Virus record (IMG/VR): IMGVR_UViG_3300021400_001319
Location: 13,098-77,097 of that record
Length of the DNA: 64,000 nucleotides
DNA from: a virus
Lineage: Duplodnaviria; Caudoviricetes
Strand: one strand, 5' to 3'
Shown: one piece after another, positions 8,315 to 17,709 of the stretch
Layout of the letters: every line of letters begins with the position of its first letter
Position numbering within the stretch: the first letter of the stretch is position 1
Notes under the pieces: model-generated
What the model was told of the DNA's origin: nothing
The model's input: only the letters and a program-made list of their open reading frames with translations
The model's database searches: none
Position numbers and translations under genes: made by a program

Positions 8315-8527
8315 ATGAGGAATTGTAAAGATTGTGTGTTTTGCCAAACAGACTTAATTACAGATTATATTAAGGAAATTGATTTGTACAAATGTGACCT
8401 GGACAACGATGTGATATTTGATCCTCGTCACGAAGGTGAGAACTGTACTTGGTTTAAAGAAAGAAAGCATGAACGTAGAACTTTACTTACGAAAATCCAA
8501 GACTGGTTACACATAAGGAATAATTGA
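8315..8527 (+). CDS. small Cys-rich hypothetical protein
   Basis: CKDCVFC...C...C; SD gaggtgg. Confidence 0.55.
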   Translation: MRNCKDCVFCQTDLITDYIKEIDLYKCDLDNDVIFDPRHEGENCTWFKERKHERRTLLTKIQDWLHIRNN

Positions 8528-8627
8528 GTGTCAAAGCTCATTATTCTATTCGTCTCCTTAAGAGACGTTCATTGATTCAAGGCATGCTGGTACTCCTATA
8601 CCAGTGTGCCTGTCCTTTAGGTAATCT

Positions 8628-9938
8628 ATGGAAAAAGAAAAACTATCAAAGCTGTTTGCTTTCTATCTTAATAATGGTATCATTGACCTGGACAGCCTTG
8701 CGGAGAATAGCAAGGAGGAATCAATGAACAATATTTTGGGCAAGGTGCACAAGTATAAGATATATGTGCATTCAGATGGAAGGTATGTAACATACGTTCC
8801 AGATCCAACCAAAAAAGATGGAAGGAGACAGATAAGAAAAAAAACAATAGATGAACTCAATGAATTCTTGCTTGAGTTCTATACAACAGAGGTAAAAGCT
8901 AAAGAAAAAACATTCGATGAACTTTACAAAGAATGGGTTGATTACAAGAAAAGCTTCTGTGCAGTTAAAAATGTGCATAAAGGAATATCACCGTCAACTA
9001 TTAGACGATATCAAAGAGACTTTGATAATTATCTAAAGGATAGCAAATTATCCGGAATGCCAATATCTGCAGTTACTGCTGTTAAGCTTGAAACAATATT
9101 AGGAGATATTGTGGAGAGTAACAACATGATTGAAAGTTGTGCAAGTAATGTAGTTGGATACATTAGGCAAACTTTTGCTTATGCAAGAAGATCAGGACTT
9201 CTAAAGGAAAATCCATGTGAGTACATGGATAGAAAACTGGTGCTATCGAAATGTTCTCTTAAGCCGAAGAAGGATGATAGTGATAGAGTTCTTACTATAG
9301 CAGAAATGAATTCTCTAAGGCAATCTGTACGAGAACATGAGAAGAAATATCCTGACTACATGCCTAACTATGCTATAGAACTTGCTATGATGACCGGAAT
9401 GAGAGTAGGAGAAATAGCTGCTCTAAGATGGATGTCTATTGATGATGGGTATATTCACATTGATGAGTCGGAACATAGGTTAGATTACGAAGACAAACCA
9501 AGTGAACTTATCATTGGAGAACCAAAGAACCAAAAACACAGAATGGTTCCATTGACTGACGATATGAGAAATCTATTTCTTAGAATCAGAAGTCTTGGAC
9601 ATGAACATCCTGAAGGTTTTGTTTTTGTCAGAGAAACAGGTGAACGCTGTACTGGCCATGATATTGGCTGTGCTATAGACAGAAGAGCTTCAGAGGCAAT
9701 GATCAAAAAGACATCTATACATGGGATAAGAAGAACAGTCTCATCCATTCTCAGAACAAAACTTCCGGCTAGGACTGTAGCCAACATGTTAGGTCATCTT
9801 GAATCAACCAATGAACGACATTATAATTATGACTTCTATGAGGACGGAGCAAAGATCGAGGCATTATCATCGATTTCTCAAATGTCCTCAAATGTCCTCA
9901 ATTTTTCTCAAAACAAAAAAATAGCGGAAGCCAGATAA
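8628..9938 (+). CDS. int: tyrosine integrase
   Basis: Catalytic residues in MRVGEI (R), EPKN (K), HGIRR (HxxR), LGH and HYNY (Y); adjacent to attP. Confidence 0.93.
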   Translation: MEKEKLSKLFAFYLNNGIIDLDSLAENSKEESMNNILGKVHKYKIYVHSDGRYVTYVPDPTKKDGRRQIRKKTIDELNEFLLEFYTTEVKAKEKTFDELYKEWVDYKKSFCAVKNVHKGISPSTIRRYQRDFDNYLKDSKLSGMPISAVTAVKLETILGDIVESNNMIESCASNVVGYIRQTFAYARRSGLLKENPCEYMDRKLVLSKCSLKPKKDDSDRVLTIAEMNSLRQSVREHEKKYPDYMPNYAIELAMMTGMRVGEIAALRWMSIDDGYIHIDESEHRLDYEDKPSELIIGEPKNQKHRMVPLTDDMRNLFLRIRSLGHEHPEGFVFVRETGERCTGHDIGCAIDRRASEAMIKKTSIHGIRRTVSSILRTKLPARTVANMLGHLESTNERHYNYDFYEDGAKIEALSSISQMSSNVLNFSQNKKIAEAR

Positions 9939-11810: not shown

Positions 11811-12305
11811 TCAGGCGCTTATCACTGTAACAAGAGAGGTCAAAACATCTATCTTTGCTTCCAAATCTTTGATTGTGTTCTGCATTGCTTCAAGCTTTGC
11901 GCTTACACTGGAAGCAAGCTCATAATTATCCCAAGGCTTTACCTCAAAGGATGCACTTCTGCTCCTTAATACCTGACGGTCTAAAACACTTGAGTTGTCA
12001 GAATTTGTATATGCAAACTCAAGCCATATCTCTACAGTACCTGCCATATCTGTAATAGCAGTGGTAACAGGAAGAATATATTCAAGATAGTTATCCTTGT
12101 CACTAATAGCTGATTCAAGAATTTCTGAATACACATTGTTCCCGGAATCTTTGTAGAAGAGAGTAGCGGAGAACAAAGACATATCACTATCTTCATAGTA
12201 CGTAGGGACATAAATCTTCAGTTTATCAACCAAGTTTTCGCCCTGCATAATTGTACTTACTGAGTTGATCTGTAATGTTTTGTCATTCTTTAAGAGTATT
12301 ACCAT
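11811..12305 (-). CDS. BppU N-terminal-like hypothetical protein
   Basis: LEYILPVTTAITDMAGTVEIWLEF resembles BppU_N; SD aggagg before MVILLK at 12305; C-terminal coiled coil. Confidence 0.5.
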   Translation of the reverse strand: MVILLKNDKTLQINSVSTIMQGENLVDKLKIYVPTYYEDSDMSLFSATLFYKDSGNNVYSEILESAISDKDNYLEYILPVTTAITDMAGTVEIWLEFAYTNSDNSSVLDRQVLRSRSASFEVKPWDNYELASSVSAKLEAMQNTIKDLEAKIDVLTSLVTVISA

Positions 12306-12403
12306 TAAAGGCCTCCTTCCATACAAAAAGGAACAGCATTTTAAACTGTCCCTTGTTGATAAATTTGTTGTTTTAGATTAAACTTATTTTGTTAGGGAAT
12401 AAG

Positions 12404-13270
12404 TTATCTTATTTCTGGCGCGCTGGTTCTCTCTGTAGGCTGGTGCGCTTTTTGTTTTATCATATCAATTATTTCTTCTGTTGTTACTGATTCTTTATCC
12501 GCAAGATGCTCGGCTAGATCCTCGTCATTCCAAATGATGCCTTTCGCCCTGTCTTCTTCACGCATTTCTCTAAGATATCTATAAAATGTTGACTTGGTAA
12601 TCTGGGCAATAGTATAGCATTGCGTGGCAGTTAGTTCCCCACCAAATAATTGAAAGTGTTTTCGTATTATTCTCTTTGCTCTTTTTGATTTCTTGGTGAT
12701 TAGCTTTTGTCCAGGTTGCCTTCCCACCTTAGAACCCATCAGTTTGGCTTTCTTCAACCCTTCAGAAGTACGTTGTGATAATAATTCTCGCTCTTTCTGT
12801 GCATGCTCAAAGGCTAAATATATCTGTCTCTCAGCTACAGATAGGAGATAGTCATTAAGGCCGCCTATCACAGTATCAATAAGTTTTGCTGTTTCCTCGT
12901 CCATACCTTCTGTAGCAATCTCAATCTTTCGCTCAGAAGCATCACGATATATCTTACTGTTAATATGAGGTTCTTTGAGAAATTCCAATTCAATACCTAG
13001 ATTATAGAGCTCTTTGTATTCCACTATAGCCTCTTCAGCATTTCTTGAAAATCTTGATACTTCGTCAAAAACCAACTTCTCAACAGCACCGAGCCTGCAT
13101 TGTCTCATGAGCTTCTTCCACCTTGGTCTATTATCAGTGCTGCCGGTATATACCTCACTGATAACTACAATGTCTGGGTATGCCTCTTTCAAATTGTCAA
13201 TCTGCCTGCGTAATTTTTGCTTTGGCGTAGATACTCTTGCATACCCCACTATCATTTTCTTTTGATCCAT
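12404..13270 (-). CDS. serine recombinase (resolvase/invertase family) with C-terminal HTH
   Basis: GYARVSTPKQ (catalytic Ser), YTGSTDNRP, VSRFSRN, GSKVGRQ, ITKSTFYRY. Confidence 0.93.
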   Translation of the reverse strand: MDQKKMIVGYARVSTPKQKLRRQIDNLKEAYPDIVVISEVYTGSTDNRPRWKKLMRQCRLGAVEKLVFDEVSRFSRNAEEAIVEYKELYNLGIELEFLKEPHINSKIYRDASERKIEIATEGMDEETAKLIDTVIGGLNDYLLSVAERQIYLAFEHAQKERELLSQRTSEGLKKAKLMGSKVGRQPGQKLITKKSKRAKRIIRKHFQLFGGELTATQCYTIAQITKSTFYRYLREMREEDRAKGIIWNDEDLAEHLADKESVTTEEIIDMIKQKAHQPTERTSAPEIR

Positions 13271-13296
13271 AAAACCCTCCTTTTTTATTCGTGTAT

Positions 13297-13328
13297 CGGT
13301 TTTATTTAGAGGGGTTTAAATAGAACTT
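13297..13328. promoter_or_regulatory. palindrome (12-8-12) upstream of the serine recombinase, candidate binding site
   Basis: CGGTTTTATTTA-GAGGGGTT-TAAATAGAACTT; same arm/spacer geometry as the sites at 15120 and 15940. Confidence 0.35.
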
Positions 13329-13391
13329 TTGCACAATCATAATTGCGATAAATAGTAAATGTGCCATGGGTTATGCAGATTTAAGACATAG

Positions 13392-13778
13392 CTGATTACT
13401 GTTCTATTTGTTGGAACGACTCCTACATTATTATGGACTAATCCAAATCCAACTTCTACTATGGCAAAAACTACAATTTCCATCAATGTTACAATATATA
13501 GTCATATAATAATATTACTAATAGCTAGTAACAGCTCCGATGTAGAGCAATATTGCCTAGTACCTGTTGCTTCCATACCCACAGTTACGAGTGGTTCGTG
13601 GTACCCTATTAGTGCAGGCAGATTTGAATCTAGTGGTTCCAAATTCTACGGTTTTACAAGAGGACTAAATGGAAAAACAACAAGTTCTATACAGGTTTCA
13701 GGTGGTTATAGAGAATCTCAAACATATGACGGTCATTGTATACCATATAAGATATGGGGTATCAATTTAACTTTTTAA
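13392..13778 (+). pseudogene. cassette B: start-less paralog of the 14561-14971 protein
   Basis: Frame opens after TAG(13389-91): ...VGTTPTLLWTNPNPTS|MAKTT...YKIWGINLTF*. The LWTNP motif shared with cassette A lies upstream of the first ATG. Confidence 0.7.
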
Positions 13779-14117
13779 ATAGCCTTATTTTGTCGAACAG
13801 CATTTAAGAAATATGTTTTAATTTCCAAATCACATAATAGTTCTATATCGTGTTGTCTTATCTATAATGGAGGCAGTGTTATTGCAGATACTGGTACTAT
13901 AGCAGCAGTAGGATCAACAAGTGACCTACTTCACTGGGCTTCAGTTACTACTAATTATTTGACTTATACTGCTCAAGTAGATTGTCATGTACTTGGTGCA
14001 AACGGTAATTCTGATACTAGTACTACAAATATATCAGGCGACTATACAGCAGGACAAACATTCAAAATTAAAAATGTAGCAAGCGGTCCACTGTGCTGCA
14101 TATTTGCATGGATCTAA
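13779..14117 (+). pseudogene. cassette C: 112-codon start-less open frame
   Basis: IALFCRTAFKKYVLISK...GPLCCIFAWI*; no ATG/GTG/TTG near the 5' end; absent from the ORF track; begins right after the stop of B in the same frame. Confidence 0.6.
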
Positions 14118-14199
14118 GATAATTAAACACGCCTCATACTAATGCCTTTTATATTTATATCAAAGGCTAACATAAGCTTTAGCGATGTGAATATGTCAA

Positions 14200-14547
14200 T
14201 TACGCTGGTTCAAACAATAAAACTAAACCACTGTGTTGATATTCAGAGAACGTAAGACTTGATGAAGTAAAGTTATACAGTACAGTTTTAGTATTGCTGC
14301 CAAATGTTTCACACACGTATAGAGTTCCTGGTGCTGTGCTAGTAAACGTTGTATTTTTATTTGATGAAGAACTATTAGCAACGGACATAGTTATTTCGTC
14401 TACTGTAATAGTTTGTTTTCCACTATTACCGACTCCTCCTATTTTACCGATTGAACAAATAGGAGTATAATTTCTTGTAATTCCCCACAAAGCTCTATAT
14501 CCGTCGCCAAATCCGCTTCGTGAATATGAAAGTATAGTATATTTCAT
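14200..14547 (-). CDS. cassette D: small S/T-rich beta-rich protein, possibly a silent cassette from ICSIG onward
   Basis: 115-aa ORF with a weak SD; contains TPICSIGKIGG. Confidence 0.55.
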   Translation of the reverse strand: MKYTILSYSRSGFGDGYRALWGITRNYTPICSIGKIGGVGNSGKQTITVDEITMSVANSSSSNKNTTFTSTAPGTLYVCETFGSNTKTVLYNFTSSSLTFSEYQHSGLVLLFEPA

Positions 14548-14560
14548 TTCATCCGTTCGT

Positions 14561-14971
14561 TTATTTCATTCCTATAATTGCTAATGGAATTAGAGTTGAA
14601 TTATTGGGAGTTTCGCCTGCCAGTGCCAGAGAAGCCTTAAAATTTAGTGTCATATCTGATACACGATATATTGTTCGTTTATATGGACTTGTCCCAGAGC
14701 GAGTAGCTATTATCCCAAAAGGTTTATCACTCGTACTAGTACTTGCTGCCCATTTTTGAATTTCTGTCATCGGATACATAACTCTATATACATCAGATAG
14801 ATTGCTTCTATTGCGAGCATAAGTAAATGCAATATATTCAAAATTTGCTATACTTTGACTTAATGTCACATCTTGTGCTGGAAATGTCGCAGACGGATCT
14901 GGGTTAGTCCAAAGTGTAGTTTCTGATAATGTTCCTCCAGATGTTCCACATCTATAAAATGCCATAAGCAT
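14561..14971 (-). CDS. cassette A: expressed small tail/receptor-associated protein
   Basis: Strong SD aaggaggtg; MAFYRCGTSGG...TLWTNPDPS...LIPLAIIGMK. Confidence 0.75.
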   Translation of the reverse strand: MLMAFYRCGTSGGTLSETTLWTNPDPSATFPAQDVTLSQSIANFEYIAFTYARNRSNLSDVYRVMYPMTEIQKWAASTSTSDKPFGIIATRSGTSPYKRTIYRVSDMTLNFKASLALAGETPNNSTLIPLAIIGMK

Positions 14972-15078
14972 TCACCTCCTTGATGTTTAGGCCCTTCAAC
15001 ATAGGGCTAAATCGAACTGTTTTATTATTTGTTATTTTGTCTTGCATTGTTTTATGATCTTTTATTTTTTTTAGAAAA

Positions 15079-15099
15079 GGAGAGGGCAGTACCCTCTCC
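15079..15099 (-). terminator. intrinsic terminator
   Basis: GGAGAGGG-TACTG-CCCTCTCC-TTTT; stem identical to the one at 21132. Confidence 0.7.
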
Positions 15100-15119
15100 G
15101 TAAAACGTGTATTTTACTG

Positions 15120-15151
15120 AACTTTCGTTTAATCTATCTTATACGAAATTA
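15120..15151. repeat. lox-like palindrome S1
   Basis: AACTTTCGTTTA-ATCTATCT-TATACGAAATTA. Confidence 0.65.
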
Positions 15152-15182: not shown

Positions 15183-15848
15183 TCATTTCAGTTTCTCCTT
15201 TCTTTTATTTTCAATATCCATTTGCCTGGCATCTTCTTCTGAAACAACGGTAAGGCCCATTATGTAATTGACGTTTTCGGAAACAACGCCATTGCCACCG
15301 AGCTTTTTATAAGGTTCATACATGGACTTTATAGTTGCTTTTTCCCTGTTAGTGATAGCTCCCCTCTCAGAAATCTTATCTGTAAGGAAAAGAATCCTAT
15401 CATGTGCCTGACCTACAAGGCTTTCTGCCATGATTTCCTGCTTATCGGCTATCTTCACTAAACTATCGGTTATCTTTGTATTATTAGCTTCAAGCTGCCT
15501 GATGGCTTCGAACAAGGCTTGTGCATCTTTCTGATGCTGAAGATCCATTCTCTCTATAGATAAATGATGTTCATCATATCTTTTCTTACCCATAGCTTCA
15601 CGTTCTGCCAAGCCAACCTTTACTTCTTCTGCCAAATCAGCTATTGCTTTAGCGTTCTTGTCACAGTAGTCAAGTTTCCATTTTGCATTGACATTTGTCA
15701 GATGATCTCGCATATCCTTTTTGATTGTTTCATCGTGATTTTGTTTTGCGTCTTCTTTCTGTTTATCTTTACGGGTTACGAAGAACTGTATAATTCCGCT
15801 ACTAATTAAAACTGTTACTCCGGTTATAAGAACTTGAGTCCAATCCAT
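15183..15848 (-). CDS. holin-associated membrane protein (N-terminal TM, coiled coil, C-terminal YxxLGGNG)
   Basis: MDWTQVLITGVTVLISSGIIQFFV; YEPYKKLGGNGVV motif, common in proteins next to Firmicute phage lysins. Confidence 0.65.
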   Translation of the reverse strand: MDWTQVLITGVTVLISSGIIQFFVTRKDKQKEDAKQNHDETIKKDMRDHLTNVNAKWKLDYCDKNAKAIADLAEEVKVGLAEREAMGKKRYDEHHLSIERMDLQHQKDAQALFEAIRQLEANNTKITDSLVKIADKQEIMAESLVGQAHDRILFLTDKISERGAITNREKATIKSMYEPYKKLGGNGVVSENVNYIMGLTVVSEEDARQMDIENKRKEKLK

Positions 15849-15939: not shown

Positions 15940-15971
15940 AACTTTCGTTTAATATGTCTTATACGAAGGTT
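15940..15971. repeat. lox-like palindrome S2 (direct repeat of S1, 820 bp apart)
   Basis: AACTTTCGTTTA-ATATGTCT-TATACGAAGGTT. Confidence 0.65.
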
Positions 15972-16827
15972 ATGTTGTTTTGGTGTATTGGATTGTTACA
16001 TAATATGTTGAAGAAGAAGTAAACCACGCATTAATAAGCGCAAGTTGATTTTTGTAACTCGTATCGGCAGATGTATTAGTATGTCCTATAAATCTTAGAG
16101 TAGCACTTATGTCACCTCTACATGCGCTTATAGGAAAGTACATACCACTAAATAGAACACCTCCTTCTATATTTACAAATGTATCAACTTTCGCACCCAT
16201 GCTTACAAATGTTGTGGTTTCAGTTCCAACTTTATTAGTAGCAGTTAATGTTCCTTTAAATGTTTTCTGATAAATCGGTTTTCCATCAATCCAAGTACCT
16301 ACTATCTTTTCTGATGTAGAGTAATCATTTTCATCTGCGTATTTGAAGGAGTTGGCGCTGTCGGTGGTTTTGGTGTATTGGATAGTCACATAAGTTTCTG
16401 TAAATGCGCTTCTATCTGTACCTGTAGTTATTCTTATTACATTTGATGAAGCAACATAAACTAAATCAACAGATGCAACGTTACTTCCACTAATAGTTTT
16501 ATCAACATATGGAAGGGGCAATATCAGACCATCTGTATTGCGTCTTGAATATCCTTCAATATTGATAACACGATTTATAGATGAAACACCTGTAGCTATT
16601 GTAGTAACACTATTATTAGGTAATGCTCCGCAACTAATTGTCTTTTGATAGATTGGTCTTCCATCTGTCCAACAACCAACTATTTTCTCTGTAGTAGAAT
16701 ATAAATCTGCTCTACTAAACTTATTAGCTAATACCTCGGGCATACCACCAAGATAAGGAAAGATGCCCCCGTAGAAATCTGCTAAGTCTTGCTTGGTTAC
16801 TACCTTGTCTGGATTTGTTACTGACAT
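15970..16827 (-). CDS. tail fibre/receptor-binding protein with two tandem YSTxEKIVGxWxDGxPIYQKT...YVTIQYTKTT modules
   Basis: Internal duplication visible in both protein and DNA. Confidence 0.75.
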   Translation of the reverse strand: MSVTNPDKVVTKQDLADFYGGIFPYLGGMPEVLANKFSRADLYSTTEKIVGCWTDGRPIYQKTISCGALPNNSVTTIATGVSSINRVINIEGYSRRNTDGLILPLPYVDKTISGSNVASVDLVYVASSNVIRITTGTDRSAFTETYVTIQYTKTTDSANSFKYADENDYSTSEKIVGTWIDGKPIYQKTFKGTLTATNKVGTETTTFVSMGAKVDTFVNIEGGVLFSGMYFPISACRGDISATLRFIGHTNTSADTSYKNQLALINAWFTSSSTYYVTIQYTKTT

Positions 16828-16839
16828 AGTTTACCCTCC

Positions 16840-17709
16840 TTAATCTGTAGTTTTGGTGTATTGAATTGTGATATTATATATTGCTGATGCATAATCTGTA
16901 TAAGGCGAGATAATTCCTGTTTTTGGTACTAATAGCTTTAAAATAGTTTTGGTACAATCCATTCTTGTGTCACAATTGTTCCCCATGATGACATAACGGG
17001 TATTGTCGCCAGACCAATAAGCAAAACCAAAAATATTTATAATATAGTCAATATTAGATATATTATGCGTATAATTACAAGCATAATTTTTTTCTATTGC
17101 AGTATTCCATGAAGATAAGGGGAAAAGCTGACCCGTAATAGTTTTCTGATATAACGGCTTTCCATCAACCCATTCGCCTACTATTTGCTCCTCTGTACTG
17201 TACTTAGGGTATCTAGCTTGTACACTTGGAAGAGTAGCCATTACTTCATCCATATCTCCACTTTCAAAAGGCTTGATAGACATGGTATTGCTTGAAAGTG
17301 AAAGACCTGTTCCTGCGGTGACTTTGTTATAAAGCGTATCAAAATAGGTCTTGAGCTTTGACTTTATATTACTCCATGTAGAATTTCTCTTGGCACTTGC
17401 AGAAGCATCATAGAATGGGAATTTATCTGAGTCTGAAAGCGTTGTCTCAGCGGCATCTGTTGTATGATAAGCATTTTCATCATCACCGCCTCCGCTTGAA
17501 AACTCTCTCCATCTTCCAAGTGTTTCATCTACTGTATTTGTAGATTTCCACTGATAAGTCTTATCTGACTCCGAACAGTACGCCGTACAACCATCATACA
17601 TAGTTGCATCTACTACTGCTTTCATTTCTGCTGTAGTGCTATACTTCAACCTCGCATCAAGAGGTTTTGAAGCCGAATAGCTGAAATTATCGCCCACCAA
17701 AATACTCAT
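16840..17709 (-). CDS. tail fibre protein with one YSTEEQIVGEWVDGKPLYQKT module
   Basis: Shares the C-terminal module and the PLDAR N-terminal motif with its neighbours. Confidence 0.75.
   Translation of the reverse strand: MSILVGDNFSYSASKPLDARLKYSTTAEMKAVVDATMYDGCTAYCSESDKTYQWKSTNTVDETLGRWREFSSGGGDDENAYHTTDAAETTLSDSDKFPFYDASASAKRNSTWSNIKSKLKTYFDTLYNKVTAGTGLSLSSNTMSIKPFESGDMDEVMATLPSVQARYPKYSTEEQIVGEWVDGKPLYQKTITGQLFPLSSWNTAIEKNYACNYTHNISNIDYIINIFGFAYWSGDNTRYVIMGNNCDTRMDCTKTILKLLVPKTGIISPYTDYASAIYNITIQYTKTTD

Follow-up and report, generated by a model that had tools for sequence, protein, structure and literature searches.

A probable multi-site DNA inversion switch for small knob proteins in a rumen phage

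Why would a phage keep, beside a recombinase gene, coding cassettes that lack a start codon and face away from the one gene that is expressed? This question is raised by a locus in a caudoviricete genome (IMG/VR virus record IMGVR_UViG_3300021400_001319, 77 kb), of which we analyzed a stretch of 64,000 nt, referred to here as the window. The locus lies between tail-fiber-like genes and lysis genes. An earlier reading of the letters alone (the original prediction) had proposed a serine recombinase that swaps nearly the whole of a small protein among four cassettes. We find that the locus is, with high probability, a working multi-site DNA inversion switch, that is, a shufflon in the broad sense with the logic of the Min system. 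This is supported by contig ends at two predicted crossover sites, by cassette inversions among related phages, and by identical constant DNA that is followed by three different bodies in those relatives.

The listing of open reading frames (ORFs) and their translations comprises the recombinase, an expressed gene (A), the cassettes B and C, which are inverted and start-less, and a fourth small ORF (D) (Table 1). This layout agrees with the original prediction, which had placed A, with its strong Shine-Dalgarno sequence, and D on the minus strand, and B and C on the plus strand. B and C stand back to back in one frame (stop to stop, 13392-13778 and 13779-14117). Neither contains an ATG, GTG, or TTG before 13461 (B) or 13959 (C); the first 60 codons of C are thus start-less, and the LWTNP motif of B lies upstream of its first start codon. 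B is a paralog of A (BLASTP E value 6e-5), also as had been proposed. Searches with the four small ORFs against Pfam and PHROGs gave no match, and neither did a blastn search of window positions 12300-15100 against GenBank phages. An exact 20-mer from the 5' part of A that we take to be constant (the head) was not found in IMG/VR contigs, so no alternative arrangement could be recovered there.

Table 1. Coordinates of genes, cassette bodies and putative crossover sites in the window
Feature	Positions	Strand	Details and basis
Small serine recombinase, presumed invertase	12404..13270	-	288 residues; PF00239 and phrog_125
Site sB, silent type	13401..13418	+	Left arm CTATTTGTTGG, core AA 13415-13416, then CG; matrix rank 2, 17.5 bits
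Cassette B body, start-less, inverted relative to head	13416..13778	+	Paralog of A; head plus B is an open 131-residue frame
Site sC, silent type	13782..13799	+	Left arm TTATTTTGTCG, core AA 13796-13797, then CA; matrix rank 1, 19.8 bits
Cassette C body, start-less, inverted relative to head	13797..14117	+	Orphan sequence; head plus C is an open 117-residue frame
D, direct orientation after A	14200..14556	-	ATG at 14547; ORF 14200-14547; ORF listing
Site sD', weak candidate	14554..14571	-	GAATGAAATAAACG, AA 14557-14556, then CGG; 4.1 bits, matrix rank 107
A ORF	14561-14971	-	Shine-Dalgarno AAGGAGG at 14975-14981
Cassette A body, currently expressed, all-beta knob	14561..14932	-	Profile search, AlphaFold2, Foldseek
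Site sE, expression type	14930..14945	-	Left arm ACATCTGGAGG, core AA 14933-14932, then CA; matrix rank 8
Constant head MAFYRCGTSG(G)	14934..14965	-	ATG, 10 codons and two bases; with the Shine-Dalgarno sequence, the single expression site

Two kinds of crossover site can be recognized in phages with related recombinases. Silent sites read TTATTT(G/A)TT, two bases, and AAC, with the conserved left arm TTATTTGTT. Expression sites read (C/T)TGG(A/G)GG and then AAC; those of the relatives are all TCTGG(A/G)GGAAC or TTTGGAGGAAC, right after Gly-Gly codons. Conservation across 14 silent and several expression sites is limited to the left arm and AAC(A/G); right arms vary by cassette, and AA is the only dinucleotide invariant at all sites. 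We built a weight matrix from the 14 silent sites of relatives, without those of the window, and scored about 128,000 window positions with it. The two best scores belong to sC and sB (the third best is 11.7 bits). Mononucleotide shuffles reached a mean maximum of 14.1 bits and a highest of 20.9 bits, and these two scores are by themselves not beyond chance; they carry weight because each of the two sites stands in frame at the beginning of one of the two start-less ORFs next to the recombinase gene. Only one copy of the expression motif TCTGGAGGAAC is present in the window (14931-14941, minus strand), at the second GGAACA of A. The site that contains it, sE, matches the expression sites of three relatives (L011 4831, L009 3023, and L008 2628).

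These sites give the locus the architecture of a multiple-inversion system. At least three sites in both orientations (sE on the minus strand, sB and sC on the plus strand) lie beside one recombinase gene, all within 1.7 kb of it. There is one expression site and a set of start-less silent alternatives in frame with it, as is also the case in L008, L011, L023, and L024. The core sits in Gly-Gly-Thr codons, within the glycine linker of a family-wide N-terminal peptide. Threonine is the first residue of each cassette at all of the loci, and all joins are in frame, including that of sB with the head. From sE, the open frames are 134 (A), 131 (B), and 117 (C) residues long, and all read ...SGG-T... 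across the join.

Contig ends of the same phage fall on the predicted cores of A and C. Exact-protein look-ups led to same-phage contigs in sheep-rumen metagenomes (ENA assembly ERZ28612966 and Logan assembly SRR873599), four of which are 100% identical to the window and the fifth (L036) 99.98%. Of the Logan contigs, L037 stops at 14930, where ...ACATCTGGAGGAACA is complete, and L038 stops at 13799, where ...TTATTTTGTCGAACA is complete, with AACA as its last bases; the ENA contig L039 stops at the same base as L038. A further ENA contig (L035) comprises exactly 14934-13745; its first base is a G, the last position at which the head arm and the C arm still agree. With L036 and with L039 it shares 55 nt, which is what branch points in a graph with k = 55 would produce. 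In all, the two cores account for five contig termini and the 55-nt overlap for one more. A repeat as short as 5-6 bp could not interrupt a graph with k = 31 or k = 55, so the reads must hold two continuations after AACA at both sites. Inversion between sE and sC predicts exactly such double continuations. Heterogeneity between A and C, the signature of this inversion, is present among the reads of the window phage. What these ends reveal is this A/C heterogeneity, and not activity of all sites. Contig ends of other metagenome loci generally do not lie on sites, and the argument from contig ends is therefore limited to the window phage.

Cassette order is not fixed among relatives, a point on which the original prediction had asked for comparison. 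We detected two natural cassette inversions among phages whose recombinases are 69-74% identical to that of the window, with breakpoints in the same AAC(A) core. Between L010 and L011 (98% identical), positions 5145-5801 of L011 are inverted: L010 1-94 matches L011 5145-5238 in reverse complement, at 100% identity over the 94 nt available, and the three junction sequences have only GAACA in common. Between L023 and L024 (99% identical), a 755-bp pair of cassettes is inverted, and one body (99.5% identical) stands on the arm GTGTTATTTTAGTG in L023 and on the recombinase-proximal arm GTAACAAATTAACG in L024. The recombinase-proximal arm bears three different bodies in L007, L023, and L024. Furthermore, L008, L023, and L024 have identical head DNA (encoding MPFVREQSGG), and homology stops exactly after GGGGGAACA, where three unrelated bodies follow. 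These recombinant junctions place the exchange, as read from the sequences, inside AAC(A). By analogy with Hin and Gin, the invariant AA is likely to be the overlap dinucleotide at which the strands are cleaved. A crossover two bases before AA, suggested by GTT-NN-AAC symmetry, was rejected, for those bases differ between recombined sites and stay with the left arm. One silent site (L017:4660-4700) is a near-perfect 14-bp palindrome, TTTGTTCGAACAAA, centered two bases left of AA; the different dyad center that it suggests finds no support in the recombinant junctions.

Several results weigh against a working switch in the window phage, or against parts of its interpretation. No head-to-C or C-arm-to-A junction of this phage was seen in reads or contigs, and the branching is deduced from contig ends. 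The ENA and Logan assemblies come from one sheep-rumen study and possibly from one sample, and coexisting strains with fixed, different arrangements would yield an identical graph. No contig breaks occur at sB or at either D candidate, where same-phage contigs run through. The right half-sites are unconserved and the head arm is unlike the silent arms, an uncommon arrangement for a dimer-binding serine recombinase. An A homolog on a 10-kb contig without a recombinase (L001) also has TCATCTGGAGGAAC; the head arm may thus be conserved only because it encodes S-G-G-T. A promoter scan upstream of A gave 13 sites against 12.0 +/- 3.7 in shuffles and located none. As for the cassette products, the fold match that points to receptor binding by A is modest (TM score about 0.5, E value 1e-4). 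Neither a database search nor tblastn against all loci found homologs of C, and its AlphaFold2 model from a single sequence is unusable (mean predicted local distance difference test score, pLDDT, 39). For D, the homolog search gave an identical copy only, and tblastn against all loci gave nothing.

The alternative that survives these points best is a strain mosaic, in which the sites were used once or very rarely and the assemblies record coexisting lineages with fixed cassette orders. Contig ends speak of heterogeneity in the community and not within a clone; relatives with inversions are also 1-9% divergent elsewhere and vary in the cassettes they contain; and the absence of breaks at sB and D fits such a history. 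Nevertheless, the recombinase is intact and is kept beside cassettes in many loci, and silent bodies retain long open frames with no start codon. Identity of the flanking contigs to the window is 100% (99.98% for one) on either side of the breaks, and the inverted stretch of L010 and L011 is likewise free of differences over the length available. We therefore regard the mosaic as unlikely.

A second alternative keeps the switch and moves its crossover points. The original prediction had aligned all four cassettes in frame around a shared AA, with A exchanged at its first GGAACA (AA 14945-14944) and D at AA 14452-14451, giving a 7-residue constant head and products such as MAFYRCG-IGKIGG. The positions proposed for B and C proved to be the second- and first-ranked sites of the window, and these two cassettes remain as partners. 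In A and D, the matrix from relatives gives both proposed positions a negative score (below 0 bits). The first GGAACA does share the core of the second, the D motif CCTATTTGTTC fits the left-arm consensus of silent sites, and a model of D in the Atlas starts its folded domain after a Gly-rich stretch near AA 14452-14451. Yet the contig ends are at 14930 and 14934 and not near 14945, and the expression sites of relatives lie directly after their Gly-Gly codons. At the D position, the left arm stands 1 nt closer to AA than elsewhere, the core is AAT and not AAC, and no contig breaks there. We consider this geometry very improbable. Both TCTGGAGGAAC and the contig ends instead place the A crossover 12 nt downstream, at the second GGAACA (AA 14933-14932). 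The head is then 11 residues long (MAFYRCGTSGG), and the products with B and C are predicted to read ...SGG-TTPTLLW and ...SGG-TAFKKY in place of joins to MAFYRCG.

Hardly credible is the remaining alternative of no switching at all, with B and C as decayed pseudogenes or genes with non-canonical starts and a recombinase that serves resolution or integration: no direct recombinant junction was seen for the window phage and the nearest solved relatives of the enzyme are the resolvase-like Sin and Bin3, but this leaves unexplained the contig ends at two cores, the two top-ranked sites, which stand in frame at the beginnings of C (rank 1) and B (rank 2), and the inversions and arm/body reassortment in relatives, and the phage has a separate tyrosine integrase (on L038).

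The inversion switch that we favor would operate from a single expression site, comprising promoter, Shine-Dalgarno sequence, ATG, and the codons for MAFYRCGTSGG. Its partners would be the silent sites (conserved left arm, two bases, AAC) before the start-less B and C and possibly D. The neighboring recombinase would cross over in the AAC(A) core. Inversion of the head site (14933) with that of C (13796) or B (13415) would bring the chosen body behind the head and park the A body behind a silent arm. Each product would keep the ...SGG-T... join, at 134, 131, or 117 residues, or perhaps 129 with D. Whole all-beta knob domains would thereby be swapped behind an 11-residue head. The head would dock the knob on the virion, and the switch would thereby change adsorption specificity, and with it host range.

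A more ambitious version of this proposal can be put forward only tentatively, and we would sooner bet against it than for it. The head and its glycine linker could be a universal docking adaptor, behind which complete knobs are exchanged, even unrelated ones (A and B versus C, D, and the bodies of L008, L023, and L024). The enzyme could represent a new clade of serine invertases that uses essentially one half-site, accepts left arms of two classes, and works without an enhancer of the Fis type. The host is probably a Gram-positive rumen bacterium, and Fis is not expected in such a host.

The product of A belongs to a large family of small phage proteins. Its likely start is the second ATG (14965), given the 9-nt spacing to AAGGAGG and standalone homologs that align from query residue 3. 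An exhaustive profile search gave 916 cluster representatives of the family at E <= 1e-3, many of them standalone proteins (117-145 residues) and others tandem doubles (~260 residues) or C-terminal domains of longer proteins. Standalone members start with MA[FLY][YFI][RK]C, followed by a glycine run and then (T)LSETTLWTNP. On this pattern, MAFYRCGTSGG reads as the native N-terminal peptide of the family plus a linker. The head joined to B at the corrected site aligns with this N-terminus (SGG-TTPTLLWTNP versus SGG-TLSETTLWTNP). In the protein P0003, the A-like domain is C-terminal and follows fiber-type repeats. In L032, whose recombinase is 94% identical to that of the window, it forms the C-terminal part of a 238-residue protein that three inverted cassettes follow. 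The A-type knob as a whole constitutes a large unannotated family (proteins P0005-P0152 among them) that may deserve a family definition, and it has two recurrent N-terminal peptides, MAxxRC..GGG and M(S/A)EKLC.L(R/K)KKGGG.

The predicted structure of A resembles the receptor-binding tip of a phage fiber, although the match is modest. The AlphaFold2 model from an 85-sequence alignment is all-beta (pLDDT 92.4), with only residues 1-10 at low confidence. Its top solved match in Foldseek is 5m9f, the receptor-binding C-terminal domains of phage K gp144, at a modest E value of 1e-4 and template modeling (TM) score of 0.49. Further matches include a phi812 baseplate chain, a monocin side fiber, and the T7 gp17 tip, and a structure search of a viral library returned small uncharacterized phage proteins and tail fibers. 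Upstream, a hairpin resembling an intrinsic terminator (15079..15099, minus strand) ends the preceding gene; A therefore probably has its own promoter, within 14982-15078.

Profile comparison showed no relation of C or D to the A family, and the two are also unrelated to each other. D bears no similarity to cassette Y of L011 or to the genes downstream of A homologs in L001 and L003. In its Atlas model, a beta-sandwich begins near residue 28 or 42. D may be a fourth cassette or, equally, an ordinary separate downstream gene. A weak candidate for its crossover site is sD', which stands directly after the stop codon of A, in frame with the ATG of D, so placed as to fit the layout of L011, L023, and L024, in which a direct silent cassette follows the expressed gene. 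The head joined to D from 14557 gives an open 129-residue frame.

By its catalytic domain, the enzyme classes as a small serine recombinase of the resolvase/invertase type (PF00239). The Pfam match covers residues 7-123 (E value 1e-21, 78 bits against a cut-off of 23.3), the best PHROGs match is phrog_125, "DNA invertase" (1e-36), and a catalytic-serine motif of the Y-x-R-V-S-T type, GYARVST (GYARVSTPKQ), lies near the N-terminus. The original prediction had cited Gin/Cin/Hin-type invertases as the established precedent. The best solved match is Sin/Bin3 (3.5e-8, aligned to Sin/Bin3 residues 1-99); with the Gin structure 4m6f, only the catalytic domain aligns, at 6e-4, a weaker match than those to Sin/Bin3 and the Tn3 and gamma-delta resolvases. 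With 288 residues against about 190, the enzyme falls outside the Hin/Gin/Cin/Pin/Min subfamily. Residues 156-240 resemble the C-terminal part of the Mpi-family model (1e-11), at 45 bits far under the curated cut-off of 272 bits, and Pfam gave no separate hit for a C-terminal helix-turn-helix.

Related recombinases, 61-94% identical to that of the window, are encoded at five IMG/VR loci and 23 metagenome loci. Inverted start-less ORFs were seen beside the enzyme in the examined relatives with enough upstream DNA (L007-L012, L023, L024, and L032). The window and the 23 metagenome relatives have no cassette DNA in common, and similarity is confined to the recombinase gene. Within the same recombinase clade, a long constant fiber is present in L009, L032, and L033, and a short head in the window, L008, L023, L024, and L011. 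In one relative of 124 kb (L009:3381-4968), an IS200/IS605-type pair, judged from translations to be a 394-residue TnpB-like and a 153-residue TnpA-like protein, lies between the fiber gene and the inverted cassettes and puts about 2.5 kb between the expression site and the silent store.

Some neighboring features stand apart from the switch. A 436-residue tyrosine integrase (PF00589; window 8404-9905, via contig L038) is encoded just past two endolysin genes. This suggests that the phage is probably temperate, with an integration enzyme separate from the serine recombinase. A 28-nt direct repeat (93% identical; 15120-15147 and 15940-15967), found as a secondary BLAST hit, brackets a gene for a 221-residue membrane/coiled-coil protein (15183-15848). 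Two adjacent fiber-like genes of 285 (15970-16827) and 289 residues (16840-17709) have common internal modules (EKIVG.W.DGKP.YQKT ... T.QYTKTT), the first of which holds the module twice; neither matches Pfam, PHROGs, or NCBIfam. Outside the window, the contig of the A homolog that has TCATCTGGAGGAAC (L001:4333-4758 and L001:7768-9962) bears ParA-like and Rep3 genes, with a 57-residue inverted ORF two genes downstream. Since it has these genes and no recombinase, L001 suggests a phage-plasmid.

Inversion switches at phage fiber tips are textbook knowledge, and nearly all known examples keep a long constant shaft and exchange a C-terminal piece. Mycoplasma pulmonis vsa has one expression site with promoter and 5' end, to which silent genes that lack these are brought by site-specific inversion; as a bacterial surface lipoprotein system that uses a tyrosine recombinase, it differs from the window and serves as a lead only. 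The R64-type shufflon proper, with the tyrosine recombinase Rci, sfx sites, and pilV, likewise differs from the window, which has a serine recombinase and a phage target, and "shufflon" applies here in the loose sense only.

The closest parallels are the multiple-inversion system Min (plasmid-prophage p15B) and the simpler switches Gin (Mu), Cin (P1), and Pin (e14), for which PMC6109161 gives a summary with reference to Johnson 2015. Like the window, these have a phage-encoded small serine recombinase beside several sites in both orientations, a single expressed gene whose 5' part stays constant, start-less silent alternatives to it, an AA-containing core, and a fiber or receptor-binding target. 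The window differs in its enzyme, which is longer and only distantly related to this group (Gin structure 6e-4; best match Sin/Bin3). Hin/Gin-type sites are 26 bp long, with two symmetric half-sites around a central dinucleotide, whereas in those of the window one half-site is conserved and the left arm comes in two kinds. What stays constant is a stretch of 11 residues in the window and most of a fiber in Min, Gin, Cin, and Pin, and unlike these, the window exchanges whole knobs that are unrelated in sequence.

Among gut phages, the Rin shufflon of Bifidobacterium prophages is similarly a multi-cassette inversion switch for receptor-binding proteins, with short asymmetric sites upstream of each cassette; it was recognized by comparing prophage and virion arrangements (Mavrich et al. 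2018, PMC6109161). It differs from the window in its tyrosine recombinase, its 11-bp rix site, and its long constant N-terminal part of the receptor-binding protein gene. More generally, the window belongs to the class of gene-altering programmed inversions, described by Milman et al. 2023 (PMC9881135) as a gene with shorter, inverted, pseudogene-like copies and a nearby recombinase, with phage tail and tail-fiber genes among the enriched targets. The passages searched in that paper contain no mention of a target of the A family or of so short a constant part.

Thus, this kind of switch is known from Mu, P1, and p15B, and what is new here is the layout and the enzyme lineage. In the window and at least three related phage groups, all that stays constant is a start codon with a short conserved peptide and a glycine linker; what is exchanged is a separately folding whole knob, and the alternative knobs show no sequence relationship. 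Should the head prove to be a docking peptide, this would be a compact natural scheme for phage retargeting and would give a handle on ~900 uncharacterized small phage proteins. With this enzyme and its one-armed sites, the serine invertases known so far would come to include members in rumen phages whose hosts are probably Gram-positive.

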